A stretch of 64,000 nucleotides of DNA from assembly GCA_943354745.1 (NCBI GenBank), contig CALRDB010000001.1, forward strand, positions 203-64,202, in the 5' to 3' direction. The stretch is from Candidatus Nomurabacteria bacterium. Its GTDB lineage: Bacteria; Patescibacteriota; Minisyncoccia; Phycocordibacterales; UBA10002. The position numbers and the translations under genes are program-made. Of the stretch, positions 7,407 to 38,132 are shown piece after piece. Position 1 is the stretch's first letter; each line of letters starts with the position of its first letter. The notes below the pieces were generated by a model, which was not told the DNA's origin, ran no database searches, and worked only from the letters and a program-made list of their open reading frames with translations.

Positions 7407-7883
7407 ATGATCCATTTACTGCGAACGTGGGAGGAAAAGTGTTTTAAAATATGTGATCGATACATACCTCGGTTTGCGCCACATCTCCGTAAACGGGCAC
7501 GATTTTTTCGGTATCTCGTCGCCGGAGGGACAGCAGCTTCGGTTGATTTCTTTTTTCTCTACACGTTTACCGAGAAGGTCGGATTACACTATCTCGTCTC
7601 GGCGGCTCTTGCCTTTGTGGCAGCATTTTGTGTGAGTTTCTTATTGCAAAAATTCTGGACGTTTCAAGACGACTCTATAGAGCGTGTTCATACGCAGGTC
7701 GCGCTGTACTTTATATTTGCTCTTATGAATCTTGGTATTAATACAGCACTCATGTACCTCTTTGTCGATGTTATGGAAATCTGGTATATGGGAGCGCAGT
7801 TCCTTGCTTCTGGTCTCATAGCCTTTGAAAGTTTCTTTATTGGTCGCTACTTCATCTTTACTAATAAGACAAGTACGACATAG
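7407..7883 (+). CDS. GtrA-family membrane protein (polyprenol-linked sugar translocation)
   Basis: It is 158 aa with four predicted transmembrane helices and RFxRYLVAGGTAASVDFFFLY, a GtrA-like signature. Confidence 0.6.
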   Translation: MIHLLRTWEEKCFKICDRYIPRFAPHLRKRARFFRYLVAGGTAASVDFFFLYTFTEKVGLHYLVSAALAFVAAFCVSFLLQKFWTFQDDSIERVHTQVALYFIFALMNLGINTALMYLFVDVMEIWYMGAQFLASGLIAFESFFIGRYFIFTNKTSTT

Positions 7884-7931
7884 GACTTTGCTGTTTCGTA
7901 TTCTCGTTTTGGTTTTGAAGCTTACTCCGGT

Positions 7932-8957
7932 ATGAAATTACTTATTGTTACGCAAAAAGTCGACGCAACCGACAGCAACCTCGGGTTCTTTATCCGTTGG
8001 CTTGAAGTATTTTCAAAAAGTGCTGAGATTGTAGTTATTGCAAACGAAGTGGGTTCTCACTCACTTCCATCTTCCGTACGTGTGTACTCGTTAGGAAAAG
8101 AGACAGGGGCGTCGCGCTTCGCAAAACTGATACGGTATCAGCGGCTTCTCCTTAAGATTCTTCCGTCCGTGGACGGTGTCTTTTTTCATATGTGCCCAGA
8201 GTACGCGATTGCGGCTCATGTACTTCCCCGGCTTTTAGGTAAGCGAACCGCGATCTGGTATGTGCATAAGAGTGTTCATCTTCCACTGCGGATTGCAGAG
8301 AAATTAGTCCAGAAAGTATTCACCGCATCGAAGGAAAGCTTTCGACTTCAAAGCTCTAAAGTCGCTATCGTCGGTCACGGGATCGATACTGAGCTTTTTT
8401 CCGGTACACAAGAAAATGGAAATGCTTTACGTCTGTTGTCGGTAAGTCGCATTTCTCCGGTGAAGGATCTCCGCACGTTACTCATTGGATTCTTTAAATT
8501 GCAAAAGAAATTTGTTGACGCTACGTTGTCTCTTGTCGGAGTACCGGTCACCGCACAGGATGCTTCCTATCAAGGAGAACTTGAGCGAGCTATACAGACG
8601 CATGGCCTTGGTACGAAAGCGCACTTCTTAGGGAAAAGACTCTATACCGATCTCCCGTTGCTTTATCATGCACACACGGTATTTGTACATGCGAGTCGGA
8701 CGGGGAGTTTGGACAAAGCCGTGCTTGAGGCACTTGCGGCAGGGCTTATTGTGGTGACCTCAAGTGAGGCTTTTACCGCTGACATTCCTGGGGTAAAGAA
8801 GTTTCGGGAGGGTGACGCCTCGCAGCTTGCTGAGGTGCTCGTCGAAGCCTCTAGTAGCGGGAAAGTCGTATATAATGAAGAGGGAAGAGAGTGGGTAGAA
8901 AAACATCATAGCCTTACGAAACTCGTCAAAAAGATACTCGCATTTTATACAAAATAA
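7932..8957 (+). CDS. Glycosyltransferase, GT4/GT1-like
   Basis: It has a GT-B C-terminal motif (GSLDKAVLEALAAGLIVVTS). Confidence 0.6.
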   Translation: MKLLIVTQKVDATDSNLGFFIRWLEVFSKSAEIVVIANEVGSHSLPSSVRVYSLGKETGASRFAKLIRYQRLLLKILPSVDGVFFHMCPEYAIAAHVLPRLLGKRTAIWYVHKSVHLPLRIAEKLVQKVFTASKESFRLQSSKVAIVGHGIDTELFSGTQENGNALRLLSVSRISPVKDLRTLLIGFFKLQKKFVDATLSLVGVPVTAQDASYQGELERAIQTHGLGTKAHFLGKRLYTDLPLLYHAHTVFVHASRTGSLDKAVLEALAAGLIVVTSSEAFTADIPGVKKFREGDASQLAEVLVEASSSGKVVYNEEGREWVEKHHSLTKLVKKILAFYTK

Positions 8958-15289: not shown

Positions 15290-16156
15290 ATGTCTTCACT
15301 TAAAAAAGTTCTCATAACTGGTGCAAATGGCTTTACGGGGAGAGAGATGGTGCGGGTACTTTTAGCTGACTCTTCAAAAGAGATTTATCTAACTGATCGA
15401 ACAGAGACTGAAGTGTCTTCACTTCGAGTCAAAAAGTGTGATCTATCAGACCTTCCTTCTGTTGAGGCTTGTATTGAAAAAATCCAACCGAATGAGATTT
15501 ATCATTTAGTGGGTAGCTACACCAACGTCTACGATGTGGATTATATATCTAATGTTACCACCACAAAAAACATTTTGGATGCGCTTCGCAGTTTGGGTCT
15601 GAAGACTCGCGTCCTTTTGGTAGGAAGTTCGGCGGAATATGGATTTCCTCTAAATCCTTCTAAGGGAGTTGGTGAAGATCACCCTCTTTTGCCGGTATCG
15701 GTGTACGGGCTCGTCAAAACATATCAGCACATGCTTATGGGGACGTATGTTCGTTTATACGGTCTAGATCTTGTAGCGGTTCGGCCGTTCAATCTCCTTG
15801 GGAACGGTGTTTCTCCGGTACTGTTTGCCGGAAAAATGAGGCAAGAAATACAACGGTACAAAAAAGGCGAAATCAAGAGTATTGTTACTGGGGATCTTTC
15901 GGTCGAGCGGGATTATATTGATATTAGGGAAGCGATAACGTACTATCGATTGGTCATGGAGCAAGGGGCTACGGGAGAAGTGTATAACGTAGGGAGTGGT
16001 AAAAGTATACCTCTTCGGACACTCATGCAGAACATGCTTGTATCGGAAGGATTGTCATTCAATAGTGTGGAAGAAGGAGTACATCACATACCAGGGAAGA
16101 TCGTAGTTCCTAAGATATGTGCCGACATAACAAAGATAAAGAGACTTAACGTATGA
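15290..16156 (+). CDS. NAD-dependent epimerase/dehydratase (extended SDR, nucleotide-sugar reductase-like)
   Basis: It has ITGANGFTG Rossmann and YGLVK catalytic motifs. Confidence 0.7.
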   Translation: MSSLKKVLITGANGFTGREMVRVLLADSSKEIYLTDRTETEVSSLRVKKCDLSDLPSVEACIEKIQPNEIYHLVGSYTNVYDVDYISNVTTTKNILDALRSLGLKTRVLLVGSSAEYGFPLNPSKGVGEDHPLLPVSVYGLVKTYQHMLMGTYVRLYGLDLVAVRPFNLLGNGVSPVLFAGKMRQEIQRYKKGEIKSIVTGDLSVERDYIDIREAITYYRLVMEQGATGEVYNVGSGKSIPLRTLMQNMLVSEGLSFNSVEEGVHHIPGKIVVPKICADITKIKRLNV

Positions 16157-17103
16157 CAACAAGCAAACACAAGAAAACACTCACGGTTGTTGCGCCGGTA
16201 TACAACGAGGAAGAAGTGATACGAGATTTTTATCAAGAGCTGAAAAACACGCTTCTCACTCTGTCTGAGTACCGCTCGACAATGCTCTTTGTGGTTGGAC
16301 GGGGAACCGATCGTACCTTTCCAATCCTGAAAGAAATCGCCACGGCGGACTCTTCGCTTCGCGTTCTGTACCTCTCTTCTCGTTTTGGACATCAAATGCA
16401 ATTACTCGCCGGTATCGACCATGCAGATTCCGATATCGTCATTATGATGGATTCGGATTTGCAACACCCTCCGGAAATTATTCCAACACTCCTTGCGGAA
16501 TATGAAAAAGGGAATGACGTAGTCTATACCGTTCGCGAGAAGACCTCCGATCAGGGTGTACTCCGGAAATGGTGTTCCGATATGTTCTATTGGTTTCTCA
16601 ACAAAATCTCCGATGTCCGCATAAGCGGTAATGCCGCCGATTTCAGGCTTATTTCACGAAAGGTGGCAGAGGTATTGAGACGTGAAATCCGGGAACGTAA
16701 TTTATTCCTGAGAGGGATCATACCGTGGCTCGGGTTTAATCAAATAGGAGTTTCTTTCGTCGCGAACCCTCGGCGGGCAGGGAAGAGTAAGTATTCATTT
16801 TCTCGCCTGATTACCTTTGGTCTCTCTGGGGTTGTTTCGTTCAGTAGAAAACCACTTCGCGTAGCTATCGTTGTTGGTCTCTTCGTTGCAAGTCTCGGTT
16901 TTCTGTATGCACTAACGGTTATTGCACAATCCTTTTACAATAGATCTTTACCCGCAGGCTGGGCGACCGTTATTGTGCTTTTGTCTATATTTGGCGGATT
17001 GCAACTCATTTTCTTGGGGATTCTTGGTGAATATATTGGCGCGATATTTGACGAAGTAAAGAAGCGTCCACATTATATTGTCGATCAGAAAATTAATTTT
17101 TAA
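16153..17103 (+). CDS. GT2 polyprenol-phosphate glycosyltransferase (GtrB/DPM1/ArnC-like)
   Basis: It has a GT2 N-terminal domain (VVAPVYNEEEVI, MDSDLQHPP) plus two C-terminal transmembrane helices. Confidence 0.75.
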   Translation: MTTSKHKKTLTVVAPVYNEEEVIRDFYQELKNTLLTLSEYRSTMLFVVGRGTDRTFPILKEIATADSSLRVLYLSSRFGHQMQLLAGIDHADSDIVIMMDSDLQHPPEIIPTLLAEYEKGNDVVYTVREKTSDQGVLRKWCSDMFYWFLNKISDVRISGNAADFRLISRKVAEVLRREIRERNLFLRGIIPWLGFNQIGVSFVANPRRAGKSKYSFSRLITFGLSGVVSFSRKPLRVAIVVGLFVASLGFLYALTVIAQSFYNRSLPAGWATVIVLLSIFGGLQLIFLGILGEYIGAIFDEVKKRPHYIVDQKINF

Positions 17104-17105
17104 CT

Positions 17106-17930
17106 ATGAACTGTCATATTTGTAACAGCTCCAACACTCGGGTCCTCGATTCCCGATACGAAGTGTATTTCTGTAGAACCTGCGGTCATGAATTCAGTGC
17201 CTTGCCTCCCGAACGACAGGAAACCTACAGCCCGGAATATTTTCGTGAAGCGCACAAGAAATGGTTTGAAAATCCAAACGCCGTTTTGTTTCAGTGGATA
17301 CACACCATAGTGGAGGCGACAACACGCGGAAATCCGAGTGCCGCCTCGTTTCTTGACGTTGGGTGTGGCCAAGGAGATCTCCTTCGCTACCTGCGGGATG
17401 CGGGGAGTACCGTCAAGCTTTTCGGTGTTGATCTTGTACAGAATGCCGACGAGAGAATCACCTACTATCGGGGGGATTTCGTTTCCTTCCCGTTTGCAGA
17501 ACGGTTCGATGTGATTTCCGGGCTTATGGTCATCGAACACGTCGGTGGCCCGCACCAGTTTGTGCGCAAAATCAGTTCGATACTTAAGCCCGGAGGCATC
17601 GTCATTATGAATACCGTGAACGCGGGCGGATTTTTGTACACGCTGGCACGGGTGCTCCGCAGGGCGGGTCTTCGTGGCCCGTTCGAACGGCTGTACGACA
17701 AACATCATCTTGAGCACTACCGCGTCGCCTCACTTCGTAAACTGTTCGAGCTTGAAGGGTATCGCGTCATACGCATCCGCACGCATAATTTCCCGCTACG
17801 GGCTCTTGACGTGCCGGAAGGAAACGCACTTCTTGCGCGTATCTACCGAATCGGTATCGCCTGCGTGTTTTTTCTGACATCGCACTGGGGTGGGGTACAC
17901 GAAACCATTATCGTTCAAAAAGACACATGA
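17106..17930 (+). CDS. SAM-dependent methyltransferase with N-terminal zinc ribbon
   Basis: It has CHICNS...CRTCGH followed by LDVGCGQGDL and LKPGGIVIM. Confidence 0.65.
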   Translation: MNCHICNSSNTRVLDSRYEVYFCRTCGHEFSALPPERQETYSPEYFREAHKKWFENPNAVLFQWIHTIVEATTRGNPSAASFLDVGCGQGDLLRYLRDAGSTVKLFGVDLVQNADERITYYRGDFVSFPFAERFDVISGLMVIEHVGGPHQFVRKISSILKPGGIVIMNTVNAGGFLYTLARVLRRAGLRGPFERLYDKHHLEHYRVASLRKLFELEGYRVIRIRTHNFPLRALDVPEGNALLARIYRIGIACVFFLTSHWGGVHETIIVQKDT

Positions 17931-19405
17931 GCGCGCCTGCGAAGATACGGGATCTTATACGGACACGGCCGGAAGTACTCGCGCTTTTCGGTGTCCTCTT
18001 GTTCATGAATGTATACGCCTTTTCCGGTCTCAAAGAGCGGCCGGAGTATTGGTACGATGAAGGACTTAATGTCGAACTTTCCCGGAGTGTCGCAGAGTTC
18101 GGCATTCCGGATATCGTCATCGCGCCCGATACGCTTTCGGAAAGCGGCGCGAGGATCGGATCGACCGGCTACCCAATCACCGTTCTGCTCGGAGGGGTAT
18201 TCAAAATCTTCGGTGTCGGGGTGGTGCAAGCCCGGCTGTGCATGTTGCTGTGGATGAACGCCCTGGTTATTTCACTTTTTTTTGCGATTCGGAAACGGTG
18301 GGGGAGTCAGGAGGCTATTGGTACCCTGCTTCTCTGTACCACCTTCGCTCCTTTTTACGGGAACGGTCTTACGGTCATGGGAGAAATTCCCGGTCTTTTC
18401 TTTCTCCTTTGGTCGTTTTATTTTTTTGAACAAAAGACCTATTGGAAATCCGGACTGTTGCTCGGCCTCTCGGTTGTTTCGAAGCCGTCGGTCTATCTCT
18501 TTTTTATTCCCGCGTTCACGGTCGCGCTCCTGTTCGGGAAAGAAACCGGGCGCGAAAAGTTGAAAAATCTCTGTAAACTCGGCGTTACTTCAATCGCCGC
18601 CCTTGTTCCTTGGGTGCTAATTTACCGTGACTCAGTCAGCCGTGTTTCTTTCTGGGAGGGGTTATTCTCGCACTTCAAAAATCCATACGGGGATTTCGGA
18701 TTCTCGGTCTGGGGAAATATTCAGAACAATCTCGGAGGATTCTTCCATTCGTCCACGCTTATCTATTTTTCCTTACTCACGCTCGCTGTACTCTGCGCGC
18801 TTGCCGCAGAGCGCTCGCTCGCGCGTGAACACCGAACACTTCTCGTTGTCGCGCTTGTATACCTTCCCCTTTCATTTTTTCAGTATCTGAAAAGTCTCGG
18901 ATATCTTCGCTATCTTATCGCCACAGAATTTTTACTTTTCCTTCTGTTCGTTTTAGTGCTACCGACACTTACCCGGTTTGCACTGAACTACGTCCCCTTT
19001 TTATCTGTCAGGGTTTCCCGTGCCGCGGGCGCCGTTCTCACAGTCCTCATACTCTTTCAGGCCGTTCATCTGTTTTGGTTTTCCGACCTGTACTCCGGCA
19101 GGAGCGCGGAAATGACCGTGGCATACATACAGCTTGTCTATCCTGAAGGTGTAATCGGCATTATCAATGCGCCACAGGTGGGGAGTCTTATCTCACCGCA
19201 CCGGAAGTACCAGTATCTATCAACCTTCGGTCTCACGAAGTTCGGAGTGAATCCTGTCTTTCTTGCGCCTGAGAAAATGCCCGTCGCTATCGTTACCGAC
19301 GGGAAGAACAATATACTTTCTCTCGAAGAACAGGAGTTGCTCCTAATGCGGTATGCGCCGGACGTAACATTCACCGAAGATTTTTTGGTGTACAAAAAGA
19401 AGTAA
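17927..19405 (+). CDS. Polytopic membrane protein, putative GT-C fold glycosyltransferase (PMT/ArnT-like)
   Basis: It is 492 aa with at least ten predicted transmembrane helices and lies next to GtrB-like synthases. Confidence 0.5.
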   Translation: MSAPAKIRDLIRTRPEVLALFGVLLFMNVYAFSGLKERPEYWYDEGLNVELSRSVAEFGIPDIVIAPDTLSESGARIGSTGYPITVLLGGVFKIFGVGVVQARLCMLLWMNALVISLFFAIRKRWGSQEAIGTLLLCTTFAPFYGNGLTVMGEIPGLFFLLWSFYFFEQKTYWKSGLLLGLSVVSKPSVYLFFIPAFTVALLFGKETGREKLKNLCKLGVTSIAALVPWVLIYRDSVSRVSFWEGLFSHFKNPYGDFGFSVWGNIQNNLGGFFHSSTLIYFSLLTLAVLCALAAERSLAREHRTLLVVALVYLPLSFFQYLKSLGYLRYLIATEFLLFLLFVLVLPTLTRFALNYVPFLSVRVSRAAGAVLTVLILFQAVHLFWFSDLYSGRSAEMTVAYIQLVYPEGVIGIINAPQVGSLISPHRKYQYLSTFGLTKFGVNPVFLAPEKMPVAIVTDGKNNILSLEEQELLLMRYAPDVTFTEDFLVYKKK

Positions 19406-19417
19406 TGTAATTAAAAA

Positions 19418-19448
19418 AGTAGCCGCCACTCTCGAGGAGTTGGCGGCT
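19418..19448. terminator. Bidirectional terminator hairpin between convergent genes
   Basis: AGCCGCCACTC-TCGAG-GAGTTGGCGGCT is flanked by A-runs on the left and a T/G-rich run on the right. Confidence 0.5.
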
Positions 19449-19477
19449 GTGTGTGAAATCGCTGAGCTTGTGTAGGG

Positions 19478-20137
19478 CTACCTTGTGTCCCTCTGTCTGA
19501 GGTACGCAAGTGCTTCTGCGTACGACACCAATGGCACGGGGGTGCCCGTTGTCATGTACTTTTCGATACTCTCGAGCTCCAGACCTGGGATGTCACTCCG
19601 GTCTTTAAATCTCCGTGTCTGTGAATGCTCCACGTCTGCTTCATACAGTGGCAGACGGGTTCCAACCTGGGCGAACACCTGTAGGTCTGCTCCAAGCTTG
19701 ATTATTGCGGTGATTATGGAGAGCACACACCTTACTAGGTGAAACTCAGGCGCAAGAACAATGAGTCCCTTCCAGCTTCTTTTTTGCGCGAGTTCAACCA
19801 TTGAGAACGCTTCAGTAAGCGTGGTTAGTAATTGACCGTCGAAAGGAACGAGGGAGATATGCTCCCGTTCTACACGAAGATCTTTAAGTACTCGAATCCA
19901 GGCTTCCGCTCCGGGATAGCCAGGACGGCTCGGGCCTTGGTTATCGATGATGCAGATCGTGGATGTGGCACACACTGTGAGAAACTCGGCTGCCCTGGTA
20001 AGGGAAGAACGTTGGTTATCGGGAGTCTCGGTGGGAAGGAAGAGGGGAAGTGAGTCCCCTCTTGGTACAACATCGGTGAGCACAATGGTCGTGAAGCGCT
20101 GCCGCTGCCTTTCTTTTTCGGTTGTAAAATCTGCCAC
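19478..20137 (-). CDS. DUF218 (YdcF/ElyC/SanA-like) domain protein
   Basis: It has DUF218-like motifs EREHISLVPFDGQLLTTLTEA and LIVLAPEFHLVRCV and starts at GTG. Confidence 0.45.
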   Translation of the reverse strand: MADFTTEKERQRQRFTTIVLTDVVPRGDSLPLFLPTETPDNQRSSLTRAAEFLTVCATSTICIIDNQGPSRPGYPGAEAWIRVLKDLRVEREHISLVPFDGQLLTTLTEAFSMVELAQKRSWKGLIVLAPEFHLVRCVLSIITAIIKLGADLQVFAQVGTRLPLYEADVEHSQTRRFKDRSDIPGLELESIEKYMTTGTPVPLVSYAEALAYLRQRDTR

Positions 20138-20271
20138 AATGCACCTTTCGGTAAATTGTTTGGTTGGACAACAAAGAATATTCCCACGTCTCCGCAGGCT
20201 TTGCTCAGCTGTTTTTTGAGAAGGAACAGCTCGTATTATATAAGCATATTTATTTCACTATGTCAATTAAT

Positions 20272-21645
20272 TCAGTCCGTCTTTTCTGCTTTGTTTAACA
20301 AAACTTTCGCTTTGCTGCCAATCCCATAAGCACCATATACCGCAAAGATAAGAATAAGAGCGTCCACAGGCATCCTGAATCGTGCATTAACTGCAAGACC
20401 CACTGCTATCGTCGTCAGTGCGAAATAGGCGATAAGGAGAGAGATGAAGATACCTCTGGTCCTATACTCTGGTATCTTGATATACCTAAATGCACCATAA
20501 AAGAAGCACAGCGAAATGAGTATCCATGCGATTCTTCCAAAGATCACAAAGAGTATCGGACTTGTAAGGAGTGGGACGATGAAATTGAGCGTTTTTACTG
20601 GAGATTCTAAGAAGAGGGTAAGTGCTGGACGATCCATTTGGAGAGAGGGAGAAATTTTCAATTGCTGTAAAACATCCATATAGCCGTCATGTGAAAAGAA
20701 AGTCAGAAATGTTGTGATAACGGATTTCAGTATACCCATTGGATGTTCCCTAATTATCGGGAAAATGCGCTTTTTGTATTCCTCGGCATTTGTTAGGGTA
20801 ATGTCCTCTACACTTGTGATGTTACCTTCGCCTATGTAGAACTCACGTTTGGCTTGTTCGAACCCGATGTGCTTTTCCGCCGCGAGTACCGAAGGTATAA
20901 GATATCCAAAAGGGACACTCGCATATTGGACTGATAATGACGGATTCCCAAAACGTATGAGGTTTCGAATGCACCACGGTGCAATTATAAGGAAAAAGAT
21001 TCCTCCCATGATTAACGAATGAAGACCGGCCTGCCGTGATCTTTTCAAAAGTAGGAACACTATACCGATAAGTAAAAAAGGTAGAAACTGAATAGTTGGT
21101 CGCGTAAGAGTCGCAAATGCGAAGAAACCAGTCGCATAAGCAAGGGTAGCCATCTTTTGTTCTTGTATGTAGTCTAAGAAAAAGGTAACTCCCGCAAGGA
21201 GGAGGACCGTAAATAGTGTTTCACTAATCAGTATTGTCGCCAGCAAGATATTGAGTGGTTCGAATGCGAGTAGAAGAGCAATGCTATTTGCAGTTCGTTT
21301 CCATGCAGGCAACAGTTGAAGTGAAATACGATAGGCGAGTAGTGGGATAAGACCGCCAAGGATAATCTGCGCAAAGAGGGCGATGTAGTAGTTTTTGAAA
21401 ATAAGGACAAACGCTGCTAAGAAAAGCGGATAAAAAGGGGTCCGTACGGATCCTGGAATAAAAGGTGGTTGTACTGCGTGTGAGAACCCGTTACCTAACA
21501 ATAAATTTTCTGCGATCTCATAATATCCATCAAGATGGGGAATAGGCATGACAGACTTCTGGTCTGACTGCATAAGTAATACATAAAAAAAGAGCAACCG
21601 TGCTAGAACGGCAAGAGAAAAAAACAACCACATTTTACGGGACAT
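20272..21645 (-). CDS. Polytopic membrane protein, putative GT-C glycosyltransferase (GT39/GT83 PMT/ArnT-like)
   Basis: It is 457 aa with about twelve transmembrane helices and an N-terminal loop after the first helix typical of the GT-C family. Confidence 0.55.
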   Translation of the reverse strand: MSRKMWLFFSLAVLARLLFFYVLLMQSDQKSVMPIPHLDGYYEIAENLLLGNGFSHAVQPPFIPGSVRTPFYPLFLAAFVLIFKNYYIALFAQIILGGLIPLLAYRISLQLLPAWKRTANSIALLLAFEPLNILLATILISETLFTVLLLAGVTFFLDYIQEQKMATLAYATGFFAFATLTRPTIQFLPFLLIGIVFLLLKRSRQAGLHSLIMGGIFFLIIAPWCIRNLIRFGNPSLSVQYASVPFGYLIPSVLAAEKHIGFEQAKREFYIGEGNITSVEDITLTNAEEYKKRIFPIIREHPMGILKSVITTFLTFFSHDGYMDVLQQLKISPSLQMDRPALTLFLESPVKTLNFIVPLLTSPILFVIFGRIAWILISLCFFYGAFRYIKIPEYRTRGIFISLLIAYFALTTIAVGLAVNARFRMPVDALILIFAVYGAYGIGSKAKVLLNKAEKTD

Positions 21646-21686
21646 AATATGTTTACTTTTATTTTAAGAGACACTATAATCACTCA

Positions 21687-22457
21687 ATGTCATTTTTTGG
21701 CGGAAAACCGAAGATCATAGGAATGATTCCTGCGTACAACTGCGCGCATCTCCTTAAGAAGGCGTATGAGCAAGTCCCGAAAGAATACTTTGATGATATC
21801 ATTGTGGTTGATGATGGGTCAACGGACGAAACACTCACTGTCGCTAAAACTCTCGGTGTAAAAGTGTTTACACATCCGCACGCAGGCTATGGGGGGAATA
21901 TTAAGTATGCTATCAAGCAAGCTCTCTCACTCGGAGCAGAGTATATGATTGAGATTCACGGAGACGGGCAGTATGACCCTGCCAACATCCCGGAGGCCAT
22001 AAAAAAGATACACACAGGTAACTACGATTTTCTTCTTGGTTCCCGTTTTACCTCACTCCTTCAGCCACTTCGCGACAGGATGTCACTTGTTCGGTATGTA
22101 GCAAATCTAGGCATGAGTTTTATTGATCGTCTGGTGTTACGTCTTCCACTTTCCGAGTTTCATCAAGGATTTCGTGTTTACTCGAGGAATCTTATCGAGT
22201 CAGTCGGTCTCGATCACACCAGCGATGATCATCTGTTCAGCTTTCAGATTATCGCGAAAGCCGCATTTGCACGAATGCGAGTGGGGGAGATATCTGTTAG
22301 GTGTAACTACGCCGAGGAACATACGTCTATAAATCTACGACGATCAGTTGTGTACGCAATACTTACCTTTGGCGTTCTTCTGCAGTACATTCTTGCTATG
22401 GTTGGATTTCACTCGCTGCTTTTTCGGAAAGAGAGCAAGAATCGCATCACTGCATAG
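21687..22457 (+). CDS. GT2 glycosyltransferase (dolichol-phosphate-mannose/glucose synthase-like)
   Basis: It has a GT2 signature (IPAYNCAHLLKK...IIVVDDGSTDETL) and a C-terminal hydrophobic helix. Confidence 0.7.
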   Translation: MSFFGGKPKIIGMIPAYNCAHLLKKAYEQVPKEYFDDIIVVDDGSTDETLTVAKTLGVKVFTHPHAGYGGNIKYAIKQALSLGAEYMIEIHGDGQYDPANIPEAIKKIHTGNYDFLLGSRFTSLLQPLRDRMSLVRYVANLGMSFIDRLVLRLPLSEFHQGFRVYSRNLIESVGLDHTSDDHLFSFQIIAKAAFARMRVGEISVRCNYAEEHTSINLRRSVVYAILTFGVLLQYILAMVGFHSLLFRKESKNRITA

Positions 22458-22460: not shown

Positions 22461-23714
22461 ATGAGAATCAAAAGTAGTCACATAACACACCGATCAACGT
22501 GTAGAATTTGCGGAGGCATGAAACTTTCTCGAATTCTTTCGCTCGGTCCGACACCGCTTGCAAACGCGTTTCTCCTCGAACATGAGCGGCACCTTCCTGA
22601 ATCGTATTTCCCTCTTGATGTGTACGTGTGTAAAGCATGCAGTCTTGTGCAACTTATCGATGTTGTTGACCCACGTATTTTGTTTAAGGATTATGTGTAC
22701 GTGTCCTCGACGTCTCCCGTCTTTGTAGCGCATTTCGATACGTTTGCTCGACAGGTCTTTGATAGATTCCATCTCTCAGCACGTTCGCTCGTTATTGATA
22801 TCGGCTCAAATGACGGCATACTCCTCAGGCCCTTTAAACAACTTGGTGCTCGTGTACTCGGAGTAGAACCGGATCGTTCGATTGGAACGATAGCGCGGAA
22901 AGCGGGAGTAACAACCATCTCCGAATTTTTCAGTCTTATTGTCGCAAGGAAAATTCTGAAGAAGTATGGTGAAGCTTCTATTGTTACGGCAACCAATGTC
23001 TTTGCGCATGTTGATGACATTCACGGTTTGGTGAAAGGTGTCAAGCATCTCTTAACGAAAAATGGTGTATTTATCATAGAAGTGCCGTATCTGGTGGATT
23101 TTCTTGAGAAGAACCTTTTTGACACGGTCTATCACGAGCATCTGTCCTATTTTAGTGTGACCGCACTACACTATTTTTTTGAGCAGTTGGGGATGGCTAT
23201 CATTGATGTAGAGCGAGTCGCAACTCACGGCGGATCGCTTCGTGTCTTTATTGCTCGAGCAGGATCAACCCACAAGAAAGAATCTTCGGTACAGTCGTTT
23301 CTCACGAGCGAAAAAAAGATAGGACTACAAGAGGAAAAAATATACCACGAATATAAAAAGAAAATTGAGCGAAATAAGGTTACACTACATACGTTACTTT
23401 CGAAGTTAAAAGAGAAAGGTAACAGTATTGCGGGATATGGGGCTCCGGCGAAAGGGAATACGTTACTCAACTTTTTTGGAGTAGGGGATGAACTACTCAG
23501 TTATATCGTAGATGATAGCCATCATAAACAAGGGCGATATACTCCTGGGAAGCGAATACCGGTTGTATCGAGTGAAAAACTGAAGACACATCCCCCTGAC
23601 TACCTCCTTATTATTGCGTGGAACTTTGCAGAGTCAATAATGAAGAAAAACGAAGAGTTCAGAAGGCATGGCGGGAAGTTTATAATACCCGTTCCTTCGC
23701 CCAAAATTATATGA
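22461..23714 (+). CDS. NDP-hexose C-methyltransferase family (TylCIII/TcaB9-like)
   Basis: It has an N-terminal Cys zinc ribbon (CRICGG...LGPTPLANAF), a SAM fold (VIDIGSNDGILL) and the diagnostic YHEHLSYFS motif. Confidence 0.65.
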   Translation: MRIKSSHITHRSTCRICGGMKLSRILSLGPTPLANAFLLEHERHLPESYFPLDVYVCKACSLVQLIDVVDPRILFKDYVYVSSTSPVFVAHFDTFARQVFDRFHLSARSLVIDIGSNDGILLRPFKQLGARVLGVEPDRSIGTIARKAGVTTISEFFSLIVARKILKKYGEASIVTATNVFAHVDDIHGLVKGVKHLLTKNGVFIIEVPYLVDFLEKNLFDTVYHEHLSYFSVTALHYFFEQLGMAIIDVERVATHGGSLRVFIARAGSTHKKESSVQSFLTSEKKIGLQEEKIYHEYKKKIERNKVTLHTLLSKLKEKGNSIAGYGAPAKGNTLLNFFGVGDELLSYIVDDSHHKQGRYTPGKRIPVVSSEKLKTHPPDYLLIIAWNFAESIMKKNEEFRRHGGKFIIPVPSPKII

Positions 23715-23819: not shown

Positions 23820-24896
23820 ATGAAATCAACCATTATTCAGGAAGATATCGAGACCATCGCGCAATCGCTTGGGCGTGAGATTCGGGCGTTGGAGGGTAAG
23901 ACCATACTTATTTCAGGGAGTTCAGGATTTCTTGGTAGCTATTTTTCCGTTCTGCTCCAATATCTTAATAAGACAGTATTTAAGAAACCGTGTTCTGTTA
24001 TTGCCTTGGATAATCAAATCACAGGCATTTTGGCTAATGCGCTTGGAGATATAACCGACAAGCATTTTTCAATCAAAAAATTTGACATCTGCACCCCGAT
24101 TTCAATTCAAGGTCCTATTGACTATATTATCCATTTGGCAGGGATTGCGTCGCCTGTCTACTATATGAAATTTCCACTGGAAACAATAAAGACCGCAACT
24201 ATAGGCACGCAAAATCTTCTCGAGTTGGCTAGACTCAAGAAAGTAAAGAAATTTCTCTTTTTTAGTTCAAGCGAAATTTACGGCGATCCAACGCCGGATG
24301 CCGTGCCAACTAAGGAAAGCTATAAAGGTAATGTTTCTTCAATCGGTCCGAGAGCGTGTTATGACGAATCTAAACGTCTTGGTGAGACCTTTTGCACGGT
24401 GTATCACACTTTATACAACGTACCGTCTCAAATCGTTCGGCCATTTAATGTGTATGGACCAGGTATGAAGGCTGACGATCGGCGTGTAATTCCACAATTT
24501 CTATCCTGTGCTTTTGACGGAAAACCGCTTCCTGTTCACGGTAATGGACTGCACACTAGAAGTTACTGCTATATAACTGATGCTATCGTCGGGTTTCTTA
24601 AGGTGCTCCTTTCGAAAGACAGTGGTGAAGTCTACAATATTGGCAATCATAAAAGTGAAACAGATCTGGTCAGTTTGGCGAAGCTGGTAATCGAACTTAC
24701 CAAACAACCGGTTACTATCGCTAAAATACCGTATCCTCCCGAGTACCCCGCGGATGAACCAAGTCGTCGTTGTCCAAATATCGGAAAAGCAATGCGGAAT
24801 TTGGCGTTTGTACCAAAAGTAAATCTCCGCACGGGCCTCAAACGAGTAATTGCTTGTCGAGTGATGCCACATGCTCCGTTACTTCCGAAGAAATAA
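23820..24896 (+). CDS. UDP-glucuronate decarboxylase (UDP-xylose synthase/ArnA-decarboxylase family)
   Basis: It has ILISGSSGFLGS, GPRACYDESKRLGETFC, VRPFNVYGPGM and RVIPQF, which closely match UXS motifs. Confidence 0.7.
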   Translation: MKSTIIQEDIETIAQSLGREIRALEGKTILISGSSGFLGSYFSVLLQYLNKTVFKKPCSVIALDNQITGILANALGDITDKHFSIKKFDICTPISIQGPIDYIIHLAGIASPVYYMKFPLETIKTATIGTQNLLELARLKKVKKFLFFSSSEIYGDPTPDAVPTKESYKGNVSSIGPRACYDESKRLGETFCTVYHTLYNVPSQIVRPFNVYGPGMKADDRRVIPQFLSCAFDGKPLPVHGNGLHTRSYCYITDAIVGFLKVLLSKDSGEVYNIGNHKSETDLVSLAKLVIELTKQPVTIAKIPYPPEYPADEPSRRCPNIGKAMRNLAFVPKVNLRTGLKRVIACRVMPHAPLLPKK

Positions 24897-25760: not shown

Positions 25761-26687
25761 ATGATTTCCGTAGTATTCCCAGCCTATAATGAAGAAAAAA
25801 ATTTAGCTGAATTACATCGGCGGTTGCTTGTGGTACTTAAAGCCATGAACGAACCCTTTGAAATTATAGCAGTCAATAACGCTTCGACTGATGGAACGCT
25901 TTCGGAGCTAAAAAAATTATCGCCTGTTAAGATCATTACGATTGCGTATAATATTGGTCAAACGGCAGGTCTTGATGCAGGGATTCATGATGCAGAAGGG
26001 GAGGTGATTATTACCTTAGACGCTGATCTTCAGAATGACCCCGCTGATATTCCTTTGCTTGTTGCAAAAATAAGGGATGGGTATGATGTTGTGTCAGGGT
26101 GGCGACAAGACCGACAAGATTCAATGGGTCGACGTATACTCTCGCGCCTCGCAAATTGGCTTACGTCTCGTGTAACGGGATTATACCTGCATGACTCCGC
26201 TTGTGCATTGAAGGCTTACCGAAAGGAAATGATTTCACCAATTCATCTTTACGGTGAAATGCATGTCTTCTTGCCGGCTCTGCTTTTTATGCGTGGGGCG
26301 AAAGTAGCTGAAGTTCCTGTACGTCATCATGCAAGGAAGTTTGGCATATCCAAACATTATTTCTTTAAGGCAGTCAAAGATATCTTTGATTTATTAACTA
26401 TTAAATTTTTGAGTGGATTGTCCGGTCGTCCTTTGGTTTTTTTTGGCGGGATTGGAGTCGTATCGGCACTTCTCGGATGTCTTTCAGCTATCGTTGCGAT
26501 CTATCTTAGATTGGCCGGCATCTTGCATCTTGGTCAAACACCCCTCCCCATTTTTGCCGTCTTTCTTGTTTTGGCTGGTATCTTGTTCTTTATGATGGGT
26601 TTCCTTGCGGAGCTCATGCTTCGAGTATATTTTGAGACAAATCAAAAAACTCCTTATACTATCTCTGAACGTATTGAGATAAAGTGA
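25761..26687 (+). CDS. GT2 polyprenol-phosphate glycosyltransferase (GtrB/ArnC-like)
   Basis: It has VVFPAYNEEKN, LDADLQNDP and two C-terminal transmembrane helices. Confidence 0.75.
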   Translation: MISVVFPAYNEEKNLAELHRRLLVVLKAMNEPFEIIAVNNASTDGTLSELKKLSPVKIITIAYNIGQTAGLDAGIHDAEGEVIITLDADLQNDPADIPLLVAKIRDGYDVVSGWRQDRQDSMGRRILSRLANWLTSRVTGLYLHDSACALKAYRKEMISPIHLYGEMHVFLPALLFMRGAKVAEVPVRHHARKFGISKHYFFKAVKDIFDLLTIKFLSGLSGRPLVFFGGIGVVSALLGCLSAIVAIYLRLAGILHLGQTPLPIFAVFLVLAGILFFMMGFLAELMLRVYFETNQKTPYTISERIEIK

Positions 26688-26736: not shown

Positions 26737-27744
26737 ATGATTTTAACCCGAACACCATTTCGTCTGCCACTTGGCGGAGGCTCGACCGATTTACCCGCGT
26801 ACTTCGAAAAGCACGGGGGTTTTATTTTTGCCGTTGCCATTAATCTCTATATGTATATAGGAGTAAATCGTCCTCCAGTAGATGATTTAATTCGTCTAAA
26901 ATATCGGGATAGTGAAGAAGTCTTCAGCATCAATGATCTTAAGCATAGTATTGCCAAAGCAGCGCTTAAACGGACAGGCATTGACCGTATGGTTGAAATT
27001 TCCTCAAAGGCCGATGTTTCTGATGGTACCGGCATGGGCAGTTCGGCAAGTTATCTCATCGGACTTCTTAATGCTCTGCATACCATAAAAGGGGAGAACA
27101 TATCACGAAGACATCTTGCCGAGGAAGCCTATGAGATCGCTACTCACGATCTCGGTCTCCCAGATGGTAAACAAGATTTCTACCTTGCTTCTTTTGGAAA
27201 CTTTTGTGTACTCGACATTGCGCGAAACGGGTCAGTAACCGTCTCAAACGCGAACATTTCAAAGGCAGTCCAGACCGAATTTGAAAAACGTACCCTTCTC
27301 TTTTATACCGGAGTACGCCGATCGAGTACAGAACTTCTTAAGGATCAAGAAAAGAAACTCCGGAATAATAAAAAAGATGCTGTGGAGTTAAAGCATGAGA
27401 CAAAACGTATCGGCAAAACTATTTTAGACGTATTTGAATCAGGAAGACTCAATGAGTTCGGCCGTCTTCTTGATGAGCATTGGAAACTTAAGAGAAAAAT
27501 GTCTGCAAAGATGAGTACCGATAAGTTTGATGCACTCTATGAAAAAGCAAAAAAGGCGGGAGTGCTTGGGGGAAAGATTGTTGGCGCCGGAGGCGGAGGA
27601 TTTTTTATGGTATTTTGCAAAGACGGAAAACAAAACGCGGTCCGGAAAGTTTTTAAGAAGGAAGGAATGCGTGAGGTGTCATTTTCGGTAGATTCTGCAG
27701 GTACGCAGGTGTTGGTTAATAAACCTCGGTCACACACTCTGTAA
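26737..27744 (+). CDS. GHMP-family sugar kinase (D-glycero-D-manno-heptose 7-phosphate kinase HddA-like)
   Basis: It has PFRLPLGGGSTD and a GHMP motif (GTGMGSSASYLIGLLNAL). Confidence 0.65.
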   Translation: MILTRTPFRLPLGGGSTDLPAYFEKHGGFIFAVAINLYMYIGVNRPPVDDLIRLKYRDSEEVFSINDLKHSIAKAALKRTGIDRMVEISSKADVSDGTGMGSSASYLIGLLNALHTIKGENISRRHLAEEAYEIATHDLGLPDGKQDFYLASFGNFCVLDIARNGSVTVSNANISKAVQTEFEKRTLLFYTGVRRSSTELLKDQEKKLRNNKKDAVELKHETKRIGKTILDVFESGRLNEFGRLLDEHWKLKRKMSAKMSTDKFDALYEKAKKAGVLGGKIVGAGGGGFFMVFCKDGKQNAVRKVFKKEGMREVSFSVDSAGTQVLVNKPRSHTL

Positions 27745-36350: not shown

Positions 36351-38132
36351 GTGGCACCTTTTTTCAAGAAACATGTAGTAGCGATAGTGTTCGCTTGCGT
36401 AATAGGTGCAATCTACGGACTACCCAACGTCCTATTTGTTCTGTCTTTGGGGGATGTCTATCAAGGTATCCCGATGATGCAAACACCAAATGAAGATGCG
36501 TATTTGGCTCGGATTCAAGAAATTCTCGATGGTCATCCTACGCTCGGTTCACCCTATTTTTTCGAATACAAAGAACAGTGGCCGATTACTCCTCCAACGG
36601 GTGAATTCTTTTACGCGCTTCCTAGTTTGTTGTTCAATCTTTCTACTTCGACCGTTTTGATAGTGAGTAAATTTATTTTACCCGCGATATTATTTTTCTT
36701 AGTTTATTTACTCGTGTTACGTCTTACGGGGGAGGAGGACATATTCAAGAAAAGTAATGCAATTGTGGGCGGTGCATGGGTCGTTCTTGGCTATGACCTC
36801 ATTGATTATCGAACTGTTTTCTCGTATCTCTTGGGGACCATCTCACCTGAATCATTTCTACTCTGGGCGCGGCCGGTTAACCCAATTCTCGGTGCTCTAT
36901 TTTTGTTTTCTTTTTTATTGTTCGTGTTGGCACTTGTCCAAAATACGAAATGGAAAAAGAGCACACTTATTGGGGCGGCCGTTTTTCTCGCACTTATGTT
37001 CGGGAGTTACTTTTTTAGTTGGGGTCTGGCGCTTTCGATTCTCGTCATGCTCGTTGTGATCTGTCTTTTTTCCAGAGAGTATGAGGTTGCGAGGACGCTT
37101 GCGCTCATTGCTCCCTTAGGTGTTTTATTCGCAGCCCCTTATTGGTATGTCGTGTGGCACGCGAGTCAAAGCCCTTGGTACGAAGCGTCGGTGCTTCGAA
37201 GTGGTCTTTTTTTAACGCATTATCCACTTCTCAACAAACTCCTCCTTGTCACCTTTGCGCTCTACCTCACTGTATTGTTTGCTGATCTTTTGTGGAAGCG
37301 AAACAAACATATTGAATATCGCTTCGAGATCTGGCATCGGTTTACGCTCGCTCTTTTGCTTGGAGGTCTATGGGTTTACAGCCAGCAAATGCTGACGGGT
37401 CGGACTCTTTGGCCGTATCATTTCGTCCAATACACCATCCCACTTTCTATGGTGGTCTGCATGGTCTTGCTTTATAACGTTGTACGAAAATGGAGTTATC
37501 TCGTTTGGTCGGCGATGGTTGGTATAATTGCCGTATCGTCCATGTGCTTTGGTGTCTACACACAAGTAAGTACATACAGAGGTTCCTACGCCCGTTACGC
37601 GCACATACAAGGCTATGCACCCTTGTTTGCGTGGCTTAACGAACAAAAGAAAGACTGCGTCGTGCTCCAAATTGACTCTGAGACAGGCATTGGAGGTCTT
37701 GATGTGGCCATCCCCGCCTTTACACATTGTAATTTGTATAATTCAGCAACCGCACCTTCGCTTTTACCAGAGGAACGAATTTGGCATAATTACTTTGTCC
37801 GCCTTTTTATGAACGGGGTTACTCCAGCGACACTTACCTCATATCTAGATGGTCATCTTTCTGAAGAGCGCACGTATCTTTCTTCTAACTGGAAAGGAAT
37901 CTTCGGTGTCAGAGAATTTCCGGACTTTAGTGACCCCTTATTGGCAAAACGGCTCATGATGGTACCCGAAAAATACCGAGAATTTTTCGGGAAAGAAATT
38001 GTAGCAGAGCTCAAAACATATCGTCTCGACTTTATCGTATCTGTTGGTCCTTTGGCGGAAATGGTTAAGAAGCGGTTGCCGGGTGTTACGCTAGTACAAT
38101 CATTTAATGACGTGCTTCTCTATAAGCTTTAA
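36351..38132 (+). CDS. Large polytopic membrane protein (possible GT-C glycosyltransferase or polymerase)
   Basis: It is 593 aa with more than ten transmembrane helices and a C-terminal soluble domain; I see no recognisable catalytic motif. Confidence 0.35.
   Translation: MAPFFKKHVVAIVFACVIGAIYGLPNVLFVLSLGDVYQGIPMMQTPNEDAYLARIQEILDGHPTLGSPYFFEYKEQWPITPPTGEFFYALPSLLFNLSTSTVLIVSKFILPAILFFLVYLLVLRLTGEEDIFKKSNAIVGGAWVVLGYDLIDYRTVFSYLLGTISPESFLLWARPVNPILGALFLFSFLLFVLALVQNTKWKKSTLIGAAVFLALMFGSYFFSWGLALSILVMLVVICLFSREYEVARTLALIAPLGVLFAAPYWYVVWHASQSPWYEASVLRSGLFLTHYPLLNKLLLVTFALYLTVLFADLLWKRNKHIEYRFEIWHRFTLALLLGGLWVYSQQMLTGRTLWPYHFVQYTIPLSMVVCMVLLYNVVRKWSYLVWSAMVGIIAVSSMCFGVYTQVSTYRGSYARYAHIQGYAPLFAWLNEQKKDCVVLQIDSETGIGGLDVAIPAFTHCNLYNSATAPSLLPEERIWHNYFVRLFMNGVTPATLTSYLDGHLSEERTYLSSNWKGIFGVREFPDFSDPLLAKRLMMVPEKYREFFGKEIVAELKTYRLDFIVSVGPLAEMVKKRLPGVTLVQSFNDVLLYKL

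Follow-up and report, generated by a model that had tools for sequence, protein, structure and literature searches.

Two, possibly three, gene sets for probable lipid-carrier sugar decoration in an uncultured Parcubacteria bacterium

Introduction

This stretch of DNA from an uncultured bacterium of the Parcubacteria (CPR) raises the question of which of its genes work together to place sugars outside the membrane, and on what acceptor. It holds two, possibly three, gene sets for decoration with sugars that travel on a lipid carrier, in which the sugar is loaded onto the carrier, flipped across the membrane, and attached to a surface molecule, a type of mechanism that is already well known. The window, meaning the whole 64-kb stretch analyzed, forms a single surface-glycan island that spans at least 64 kb. 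It contains at least six GT4 genes, a GT47-like gene, AsnB, and sugar dehydrogenases, as well as heptose-like and nonulosonic-acid pathways and a HepA/MsbA/PglK-like ABC exporter. Searches of the 64 kb turned up no initiating phosphoglycosyltransferase, Wzx, Wzy, or ligase. The best explanation, which we hold with moderate confidence, is that this DNA carries two multi-component transmembrane glycosylation modules, both complete, and near them a third lipid-sugar donor, and that they serve decoration in this island.

Results and discussion

Gene content and gene order suggest two modules. Synteny was assessed in 49 related loci (L-numbered), and all genes named in an earlier note on this DNA proved to be open reading frames where it had placed them, with a significant family match for each except the 219-aa DUF218 candidate (Table 1). 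Operon structure and synteny suggest that module 1 would consist of SDR 15290, GT2a, methyltransferase 17106, and GT-C1, and that module 2 would consist of GT-C2, GT2b, C-methyltransferase 22461, and SDR 23820. The parts are tied together by synteny in the related loci and by natural fusions of methyltransferase, GT2, or GtrA to GT-C proteins.

Table 1 Genes of the two modules and other candidate components in the window
Feature	Coordinates	Strand	Basis and assignment
GtrA-family small membrane protein	7407..7883	+	PF04138, 74 bits, full model; candidate shared flippase for polyprenyl-P-sugars
SDR/epimerase, 288 aa	15290..16156	+	PF01370, 130 bits; predicted nucleotide-sugar tailoring enzyme, module 1
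GT2a, GtrB-type polyprenyl-phosphate sugar synthase	16153..17103	+	PF00535, 84 bits
SAM-dependent methyltransferase, N-terminal CxxC...CxxC zinc ribbon	17106..17930	+	PF13489, 80 bits; module 1 accessory
GT-C1, GT-C-fold transferase	17927..19405	+	PF13231 PMT_2, 34.6 bits
Divergent DUF218-like protein, 219 aa, predicted cytoplasmic	19478..20137	-	Transitive homology
GT-C2, second GT-C-fold transferase	20272..21645	-	PF13231 PMT_2, 29.3 bits; gene-caller start 21633
GT2b, DPM1/PpgS-like polyprenyl-phosphate sugar synthase	21687..22457	+	PF00535, 79 bits
NDP-sugar C-methyltransferase, module 2 tailoring	22461..23714	+	PF08421 + PF13489 + PF08484 (201 bits)
SDR, 4,6-dehydratase/UDP-xylose synthase-like, module 2 tailoring	23820..24896	+	PF01370, 157 bits
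GT2c, ArnC-type polyprenyl-phosphate sugar synthase, third donor	25761..26687	+	PF00535, 97 bits
CPR-specific ~10-TM protein, candidate GT2c partner only	36351..38132	+	Neighbors in related loci

In module 1, the stop of SDR 15290, whose NCBIfam matches to 4,6-dehydratases and epimerases are all sub-threshold, overlaps the start of GT2a, and the order SDR-GT2a-GT-C1 is conserved in L002-L010. GT2a matches PgfS (270 bits) and ArnC (149 bits) in NCBIfam over its full length, and aligns with the Synechocystis GtrB structure (5ekp) over residues 9-311 with 200 bits. The match of GT2c to ArnC is full-length too (194 bits in NCBIfam, 176 bits against solved ArnC structures), and the solved GtrB and ArnC proteins are polyprenyl-P sugar synthases. 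GT2a and GT2c each end in two TM helices, those of GT2a being hydrophobic stretches at its C-terminus, and the GtrB architecture ascribed to them in the earlier note is thus confirmed. The GT2a gene is directly upstream of a GT-C1 homologue in at least eight of the closest loci, a GT2 gene lies within 1.2 kb of a GT-C1 homologue in 32 of the 49, and GT2 and GT-C1 occur as one protein in two fusions (P0056 and P0057). The end of methyltransferase 17106 overlaps the start of GT-C1 by four bases. A counterpart is present in L005, and a copy 66% identical to its product is fused to a GT-C1 homologue (P0016). This gene lies inside the interval considered earlier and had been passed over there, as had the SDR and C-methyltransferase genes at the borders of that interval, with which the modules are complete.

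Module 2 is built around GT2b and GT-C2, which are divergently transcribed and 41 bp apart. The third GT2 of the earlier note, GT2b, is a shorter, DPM1/PpgS-like protein with a single C-terminal TM helix, and its NCBIfam matches to PpgS (81 bits), AglJ (60), and a Dol-P hexose transferase (41) are all under the cut-offs. The divergent pairing recurs in L006 and L007, where the C-methyltransferase again follows GT2b and the order of the whole module is kept, and in many distant loci a GT2b-like gene abuts a GT-C homologue. C-methyltransferase genes are also found near such pairs in L017, L021, L022, L028, and L031. SDR 23820 is syntenic with GT2b and the C-methyltransferase, and has sub-threshold matches to dTDP-glucose 4,6-dehydratase (110 bits) and UDP-xylose synthase (82 bits). 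Because all NCBIfam matches fall under the equivalog cut-offs, no sugar specificity can be transferred to these enzymes.

Both large membrane proteins are GT-C transferases, as had been proposed. Each scores above the PMT_2 cut-off of 26.1 bits, and their confident AlphaFold models (AF2 pLDDT 92.7 for GT-C1; pLDDT 90 for GT-C2) match ArnT, ALG12, STT3/AglB, and Pmt4. The Foldseek matches of GT-C1 are led by ALG12 (3e-8) and ArnT (4e-7), followed by STT3/PglB, ALG9, DPY19, AftD, and Pmt4, and the structural matches of GT-C2 include ArnT, PimE, AftA, AftB, and ALG3. Profile searches of the two proteins against the PDB gave no match, and sequence identity to characterized members is undetectable. 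GT-C1 carries the motif YWYDEG.N.E after TM1, with D44 invariant and E45 conserved in at least 90% of homologues, and a small extracytoplasmic C-terminal domain (about residues 393-492). In GT-C2, D39 lies just after TM1 and is invariant. The positively charged N-termini of the two proteins place the D44 and D39 loops outside the membrane. With acidic residues in the first loop of both proteins, and significant structural matches to GT-C enzymes only, the possibility raised earlier that they lack these residues or have a transporter fold does not apply.

The GtrA-like protein proposed at 7407 was likewise recovered. Two observations on it count against the best explanation: 8 kb separate it from module 1 and 12 kb from module 2, and no more than 8 of the 49 loci have a GtrA gene. 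Homologues with 35-38% identity are fused N-terminally to GT-C2 homologues (P0110, P0117, and P0122).

A proposed route and its precedents. Cytoplasmic SDR and methyltransferase enzymes would modify a nucleotide sugar, and a membrane-anchored GT2 (GT2a, GT2b, or GT2c) would move it onto polyprenyl phosphate. The GtrA-family protein, probably common to all modules, would then flip this lipid-bound monosaccharide outward. At the outer face, GT-C1 or GT-C2 would hand the sugar on to an acceptor outside the membrane by means of its loop-1 Asp. The sugars added are probably methylated or C-methyl-branched. The acceptor is most likely the glycan made by the surrounding GT4 transferases, in which case the modules would add side-chain decorations. 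The core of the earlier reading, a Pol-P-sugar synthase, GtrA, and GT-C acting together in extracytoplasmic glycosylation, is supported, with folds, the invariant loop-1 acidic residue, gene order, and natural fusions in agreement; of its suggested targets, lipid A and O-antigen are unlikely, and PMT-type O-mannosylation is not supported.

In Gram-positive bacteria, several GT-A/GT-C pairs, many with PMT_2 GT-Cs, rely on a common GtrA flippase in decorating wall polysaccharides and LTA, as in CsdAB/CsdCD/CsdEF with the single flippase CflA in L. lactis, YkcC/YkcB in B. subtilis, and GtsABC in B. anthracis (PMC8035078). The genes described here share with these systems a membrane-linked GT-A Pol-P-sugar synthase, a GtrA-type flippase, and a GT-C transferase, the presence of multiple GT-A/GT-C pairs beside one GtrA gene, PMT_2 GT-Cs, and a location in or beside wall-polysaccharide clusters of single-membrane organisms. 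They differ in that the host is a CPR bacterium, GT-C sequence identity is undetectable, and the modules carry their own methyltransferase and C-methyltransferase, with a methyltransferase-GT-C fusion in some relatives.

The gtrA-gtrB-gtrC cassettes of Shigella and Salmonella phages and Synechocystis GtrB are comparable in the full-length alignment of GT2a with GtrB, and the cassettes also in the presence of a GtrA homologue and in their modular, portable nature. Here, however, the genes do not form one compact three-gene cassette, and the GtrC-type transferases, which are serotype-specific, do not belong to PMT_2. ArnC/ArnT serve the addition of L-Ara4N to lipid A, and mycobacterial PpgS/Rv3779 that of GalN to arabinogalactan. 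GT2c resembles ArnC, GT2b resembles PpgS, and ArnT is a top structural neighbor of both GT-Cs, but the scores are far under the equivalog cut-offs, no ArnD or ArnE/F is present here, and neither acceptor is expected. The methyltransferase of module 1 has a precedent in ArnD of the Arn pathway, where the lipid-linked sugar is modified after it has been made and before it is transferred.

Alternative acceptors and roles. Less likely, in our estimate, but a serious alternative, is protein O-glycosylation, in which the GT-Cs would use the lipid-linked sugars to glycosylate Ser/Thr within disordered linkers of proteins that are at the surface or anchored in the membrane, on the model of PgfS/PgfM1 of S. 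mutans, GtrB/PgtC2 of streptococci, or actinobacterial Ppm1/PMT. PgfS is the closest named family of GT2a, but at 270 bits the match falls well short of the 500-bit cut-off for equivalogs. The SDR/epimerase, GT2, and GT-C make-up of module 1 matches the pgf operon (PgfS, PgfE, PgfM1, and PgfM2), and two GT-C genes lie near each other in both, whereas PgfM1, PgfM2, and PgtC2 are YfhO-family rather than PMT_2 proteins (10.1101/2024.05.05.592596), and the modules encode no adhesin substrates. The DE pair in loop 1 of GT-C1 resembles that of PMTs, yet neither GT-C matches PF02366 or the MIR domain, so that O-mannosylation of the PMT (GT39) kind is not supported. Possible targets are S-layer proteins, pilins, and the PKD/LTD protein with which the window starts, called a plausible acceptor in the earlier note. 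That protein has a C-terminal membrane anchor preceded by a Pro/Ser/Lys-rich linker of about 55 residues, and a homologue flanks the island in only two fetched loci (L011 and L015). The stalk is short and not poly-Ser/Thr, and its role as acceptor is conjecture. Several distant loci (L028, L034, and L037) have a GT2/GT-C pair without neighboring GT4 genes, so a glycan encoded next door is not required, although the modules described here do sit in a polysaccharide-type island.

Elongation of a backbone, as opposed to its decoration, is distinctly improbable. GT4s would build a lipid-anchored core in the cytoplasm, the ABC exporter would flip it, and the GT-Cs would extend it outside from polyprenyl-P-sugars, a logic used for mycobacterial LM/LAM (PimA/B, then PimE/MptA/B) and by eukaryotic ALG3/9/12. 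The three separate lipid-sugar donors, the number of GT4 genes, the exporter, and the lack of detected Wzy and Wzx in the 64 kb are consistent with such a role, as are the ALG and PimE/AftA/AftB matches of the GT-Cs. The structural ranking is shallow, however, with ArnT, STT3, and Pmt4 at similar scores, and says nothing about acceptor type, and the modules are portable and variably present in relatives, a pattern easier to reconcile with optional decoration than with a backbone step that is essential.

Scarcely credible is an Arn-like modification of membrane lipids, modeled on lipid A aminoarabinosylation: beside the ArnC and ArnT resemblances, the window has a UDP-glucose dehydrogenase, a UXS/ArnA-like SDR, DegT aminotransferases, and a formyltransferase, but the ArnC score of GT2c is far under the 529-bit cut-off, neither GT-C has an ArnT match in NCBIfam, the genes for the aminotransferases and the formyltransferase, over 25 kb off, belong to a nonulosonic-acid block, and all homologues come from MAGs of Patescibacteria/Parcubacteria, which to our knowledge have a single membrane and no LPS. 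Since all relatives are Patescibacteria, a lineage in which we know of no O-antigen, lipid A and O-antigen are both unlikely targets.

Further candidate components of the modules. In addition to the genes above, the 36351 protein is a possible partner of GT2c. It has more than 266 homologues in CPR, which adjoin GT2 genes in L014 and L033 and GT-C1 homologues in L026 and L045. Neither it nor any of 34 homologues matches Pfam, and hhalign comparison with the GT-C1 and GT-C2 profiles was negative.

The gene between the two GT-Cs had been called DUF218, which holds in part. It has no Pfam or NCBIfam match of its own, even at E = 10, whereas 26 of 53 aligned homologues individually match PF02698 (best E 1.7e-7), so the label is only transitive. 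The family comprises 346 representatives at E <= 1e-3, with T106, R136, H171, Q173, and E187 invariant and H133 and E109 at least 90% conserved. The undecaprenyl-phosphate link of such proteins is based on ElyC and SanA, whose DUF218 domains face the periplasm (PMC12176290), and is indirect for this one, in which no TM helix, signal peptide, or membrane anchor is predicted. It would be an optional accessory of the modules, predicted to be cytoplasmic, and its gene occupies the same place after GT-C1 in L006 and L009.

Gene organization suggests two transmembrane glycosylation modules

The interval 16153-22457 contains six genes, and Pfam confirmed the families that the earlier note had given for the GT2, GtrA and large membrane proteins. 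Together with their flanking partners these genes would form two multi-component transmembrane glycosylation modules. The first comprises an SDR gene, the GT2 glycosyltransferase gene GT2a, a methyltransferase gene and the membrane glycosyltransferase gene GT-C1; the second comprises GT-C2, GT2b, a C-methyltransferase gene (22461) and another SDR gene (23820). A third GT2 gene, GT2c, would act as an additional lipid-sugar donor, and all probably use in common one GtrA-family gene (PF04138), whose product is the candidate flippase. In the proposed mechanism, a polyprenyl-phosphate monosaccharide would be formed and then transferred to an extracytoplasmic acceptor. In Lactococcus lactis, one flippase serves three GT-A/GT-C pairs, and PMT_2 proteins make up many of the characterised Gram-positive GT-Cs (PMC8035078).

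Positions of the genes and other features discussed in the text. The Pfam cut-off for PMT_2 is 26.1 bits.
Feature	Position	Strand	Match or description
SDR	15290-16156		
GT2a	16153-17103	+	GT2 domain (Pfam)
SAM methyltransferase	17106-17930	+	
GT-C1	17927-19405	+	PMT_2, 34.6 bits (Pfam)
Intergenic spacer	19406-19477		
219-aa ORF	19478-20137	-	
GT-C2	20272-21645	-	PMT_2, 29.3 bits (Pfam)
GT2b	21687-22457	+	GT2 domain (Pfam)
GT2c	25761-26687		GT2 domain (Pfam); outside the interval
GtrA-family gene	7407-7883		PF04138, 74 bits (Pfam); outside the interval
PKD/LTD surface protein	2-889	+	C-terminal part
tRNA-binding-domain gene	2409-2744		
Amino-acid-kinase-family gene	3041-3865		
Heptose-like pathway genes	26737-27744, 30919-31614, 32750-33286, 33348-34112, 34789-35400		
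IS200-type Y1 transposase	34213-34644	+	PF01797, 92 bits
593-aa membrane protein	36351-38132	+	
FkbM-type methyltransferase	38107-39126		
Capsule_synth-like gene	42535-44037	-	KpsS/KpsC-like, weak
Nonulosonic-acid block	44168-54043, 58409-60546		
394-aa protein	46955-48139		
ABC exporter half-transporter	54891-56891	+	HepA family, 351 bits
Capsule_synth-like gene	56951-58399	+	KpsS/KpsC-like, weak

The four genes of the first module overlap or abut by a few bases and so look like a single operon. GT-C2 and the gene for a 219-aa protein lie on the opposite strand, with the start of GT-C2 41 bp from GT2b. GT-C1 and the 219-aa gene converge, with 72 bp between their stops, and an 8-bp inverted repeat (AGCCGCCA-12 nt-TGGCGGCT) in this spacer could be a bidirectional terminator. 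This repeat was absent from the list of a generic terminator scan. Counts of promoter-like and terminator-like sequences between 15 and 24 kb carry no weight, as they did not exceed shuffled expectation, and no tRNA, tmRNA or Rfam element was found within the 64-kb window.

Three GT2 genes encode putative lipid-phosphate sugar synthases

All three GT2 genes encode membrane-anchored GT-A proteins of the GtrB/ArnC/DPM1 type. GT2a aligned end to end with two NCBIfam families, PgfS (270 bits) and ArnC (149 bits), and over residues 9-311 with the solved GtrB of Synechocystis (200 bits). GT2c aligned with ArnC over its full length, both in NCBIfam (194 bits) and among solved ArnC structures (176 bits). 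Each of these two proteins has two C-terminal hydrophobic helices, the architecture of GtrB and ArnC, whereas the shorter GT2b has one. The best NCBIfam matches of GT2b were mycobacterial PpgS (81 bits), archaeal AglJ and dolichyl-phosphate hexose transferase, with weak similarity only to solved DPMS. All NCBIfam scores of the three proteins fall under the equivalog cut-offs, and thus support their class as lipid-phosphate sugar synthases, not their sugar specificity.

GT-C1 and GT-C2 have the fold and first-loop acidic residue of GT-C enzymes

Searches of the GT-C1 and GT-C2 family profiles against PDB sequences gave no useful match, so that a fold comparison was needed. AlphaFold models built from 35-36 homologues were confident (pLDDT 92.7 for GT-C1 and 90.0 for GT-C2). 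The GT-C1 model matched ALG12 (E 3e-8) and ArnT (E 4e-7, TM-score 0.62), followed by STT3/PglB, ALG9, DPY19, AftD and Pmt4. Identification of either protein as a transporter was ruled out, all transporter matches having a probability <= 0.1 and a TM-score < 0.2. By profile comparison the two are distant paralogues (hhalign 84%, E 8e-6).

Both proteins have a positively charged N-terminus ahead of TM1. After TM1, GT-C1 contains the motif YWYDEGLNVE, in which D44 is invariant and E45 at least 90% conserved among 36 sequences, and GT-C2 contains DGYYEIAEN, in which D39 is invariant among 35 sequences. The earlier note had made a lack of acidic first-loop residues a ground for refuting a protein-glycosylation role; this check was run and passed, because D44 and D39 occupy the site at which GT-C enzymes carry their catalytic acidic residue. 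Both proteins thus pair a polytopic GT-C fold with an acidic residue that is conserved in the first loop outside the membrane.

The C-terminus of GT-C1 is modeled as an alpha/beta domain of roughly 100 residues. Pfam searches of the two proteins returned PF13231 alone at E <= 0.01, without PF02366 (PMT) or MIR, and neither AlphaFold model contains a beta-trefoil loop domain. Precomputed PF02366 matches exist for a few GT-C2 homologues. The PMT-type Asp-Glu motif of loop 1 is present in GT-C1 as D44-E45, while GT-C2 has D39 only. Membership in the GT39 PMT family, as defined by PF02366 with MIR/PMT_4TMC, was supported for neither.

Synteny and gene fusions link the components

Fifty-two loci carrying GT-C1 relatives were fetched and their ORFs compared with the window proteins by BLASTP; the counts refer to the 49 in which the GT-C1 homologue was recovered. 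The nine closest loci (L002-L010) retain the order SDR, GT2a, (methyltransferase), GT-C1. In L006 and L007, GT-C2 is divergent from GT2b, which is followed by the C-methyltransferase and SDR genes of the second module, and in more distant loci a GT2b-like gene immediately adjoins the GT-C gene. Genetic coupling of GT-A and GT-C is evident from the adjacent or overlapping genes of the window, from the 32 of 49 loci in which a GT2 gene and the GT-C gene lie within 1.2 kb of each other, and from two proteins (P0056 and P0057) in which a GT2 is fused to a GT-C1 homologue. Other fusions join a methyltransferase 66% identical to that of the first module to a GT-C1 homologue (P0016), and a GtrA domain 35-38% identical to the window GtrA to GT-C2 homologues (P0110, P0117 and P0122). 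Such natural fusions give independent linkage between the module parts. Methyltransferase and GtrA are each joined to the N-terminal, cytoplasmic end of the GT-C, in agreement with the topology predicted for it.

The SDR, methyltransferase and C-methyltransferase genes attached to the modules hint at transfer of deoxy, methylated or C-branched sugars. The substrate of the first-module methyltransferase might be either a nucleotide sugar or a lipid-linked sugar; ArnD is a precedent for modification of a sugar while lipid-linked.

The 219-aa protein, a probable divergent DUF218 relative, appears to be an optional accessory

The 219-aa protein itself had no Pfam or NCBIfam match, even at E = 10, and a search of PDB sequences with its family profile gave no useful match. 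An exhaustive HMMER search recovered 346 family representatives at E <= 1e-3, and DUF218 (PF02698) was matched individually by 26 of 53 aligned members (best E 1.7e-7), on which grounds we accept it as a divergent DUF218 relative. Among the 53 members, T106, R136, H171, Q173 and E187 are invariant, E109 is nearly so, and H133 is present in 49. The function of SanA needs a Thr-His-Glu set (T125/H149/E182) (PMC12176290); T106, H133 and E187 are conserved within the 219-aa family, which does not imply a positional match to the SanA residues. The DUF218 domain of SanA and ElyC faces the periplasm (PMC12176290). Neither a membrane helix nor a signal peptide is present in the 219-aa protein, which is thus predicted to be cytoplasmic, like YdcF. 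It appears to be an optional accessory, since a homologue follows GT-C1 in L006 and L009 and is missing at that position in L007. We know of no biochemical activity for this family.

Possible acceptors and relation to known systems

By gene content, glycan biosynthesis fills the whole window, which holds at least six GT4 genes, a GT47-like gene, AsnB, many methyltransferases and sugar dehydrogenases, heptose-like and nonulosonic-acid pathways, two KpsS/C-like genes and a HepA/MsbA/PglK-like ABC exporter. We lean slightly toward the modules decorating this island's own glycan. Pfam searches of the 64-kb window detected neither an initiating phosphoglycosyltransferase (WecA/MraY or WbaP type) nor a Wzx flippase, a Wzy polymerase or an LCP ligase, so the window does not account for the start, export and anchoring of the main glycan. 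In NCBIfam scans, the SDRs and the GT4, GT47 and capsule-like transferases gave sub-threshold, generic matches only, which name neither the sugars nor the acceptor glycan.

O-glycosylation of proteins by the modules is the less likely but still credible reading. In streptococci, systems of the Pgf and GtrB/PgtC2 types attach sugars to linkers rich in Ser/Thr (10.1101/2024.05.05.592596), and the PKD/LTD surface protein at the window start carries a membrane anchor and a short stalk rich in Pro/Ser/Lys. Membership in the Streptococcus mutans Pgf pathway itself was rejected: GT2a falls short of the 500-bit PgfS equivalog cut-off, and the Pgf GT-Cs belong to the YfhO family whereas those of the window are PMT_2 proteins. 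Elongation of a backbone in the LM/LAM or ALG manner, with ALG12 and ALG9 among the GT-C1 fold matches, strikes us as improbable. Arn-like lipid modification is hardly credible, despite the ArnT fold match, given that ArnT (GT83)/ArnC orthology was rejected on the GT2c score (equivalog cut-off 529 bits), the Patescibacteria lineage and the failure to find ArnD or ArnE/F. GT-C1 had no NCBIfam match and GT-C2 only weak Leptospira-family matches. Of the glycosylation claimed in the earlier note, the three-component logic was right; lipid A and O-antigen were too broad as targets, and the suggested acceptor was speculative.

Homologues of GT-C1, GT-C2 and a 593-aa membrane protein of the window all come from Patescibacteria MAGs (Parcubacteria, Taylor-, Lloyd-, Niyogi-, Kaiser-, Adler-, Komeili- and Falkowbacteria and, more distantly, Peregrinibacteria). 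CPR bacteria have very small genomes and presumably live on other cells, to which they attach, and to our knowledge almost nothing is known of their surface chemistry. Two or three lipid-carrier modules here would extend to CPR the decoration logic of Gram-positives, mycobacteria and phage gtr cassettes, and the conserved modules and fusions supply enzyme pairs that could be cloned to define the surface sugars of CPR. To a specialist the mechanism would come as no surprise. The system, new and uncharacterised, is of a well-known kind, to which its CPR host, its coupling with a methyltransferase and the extent of the island around it add modest interest. A CPR-specific elaboration is a long shot: the sugar would be methylated on the lipid carrier by a cytoplasmic methyltransferase that is physically coupled to the N-terminal end of the donor-using GT-C, to which it is fused in some relatives, and the methylated or C-branched sugars, with the 593-aa protein as a possible CPR-only GT-C-like family, would build a lipoglycan or glycoprotein coat that could mediate episymbiont-host attachment.

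Other features of the surrounding island

The 593-aa protein combines some 10 TM helices with a soluble domain at its C-terminus, and could represent an undescribed glycan polymerase, ligase or GT-C-like family. It has more than 266 homologues (45-62% identity). Neither it nor 34 homologues matched Pfam, and its family profile found no useful match among PDB sequences. The loop after TM1 (PNEDAYLARIQEILDGHP) recalls the first loop of ArnT-type GT-Cs; hhalign comparison with the GT-C1 and GT-C2 profiles, as a third GT-C, was negative. Homologues adjoin GT2 genes in L014 and L033 and GT-C1 homologues in L026 and L045, and in the window the stop of the gene overlaps an FkbM-type methyltransferase gene.

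What looks like a conserved island core extends over 984-8957 as the string GT4 (984), GT4 (4013), GT4 (5050), truncated sugar dehydrogenase (6395), GtrA (7407) and GT4 (7932), which recurs in many distantly related Parcubacteria loci (L007, L023, L043, L046 and L047). An amino-acid-kinase-family gene, also found in L007, and a tRNA-binding-domain gene lie inside it. The PKD/LTD protein, which runs off the window start, is represented by its C-terminal part, with a PKD domain, a lamin-tail domain, a Pro/Ser/Lys/Glu-rich linker of ~55 residues, a single TM helix and a short, charged tail; in L011 and L015 a homologue is encoded beside the island.

Genes of a GDP-glycero-manno-heptose-like pathway are scattered and encode an HddA-like GHMP kinase (147 bits), a nucleotidyltransferase, a GmhB-like HAD phosphatase, a transaldolase-like enzyme and a GmhA-like SIS isomerase, the last two genes being separated by the IS200-type transposase. 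In L006-L009 and L013 such genes come after the GT-C modules. The ABC exporter is HepA/MsbA/PglK-like and is the one candidate in the window for exporting or flipping a lipid-linked oligosaccharide; its true start is probably later, because the listed ORF overlaps the preceding gene by ~210 bases. The nonulosonic-acid (legionaminic/pseudaminic-type) block encodes NeuB, a UDP-GlcNAc 2-epimerase-like protein, a CMP-sugar synthetase, two PseB/PglF-type dehydratases, two DegT aminotransferases, a formyltransferase and a hexapeptide acyltransferase, along with HisF/HisH-like proteins and an unassigned 394-aa protein that suggest acetamidino modification. The two Capsule_synth-like proteins, one of which also weakly matched the BFO_1060 glycosyltransferase family, may be nonulosonic-acid transferases.
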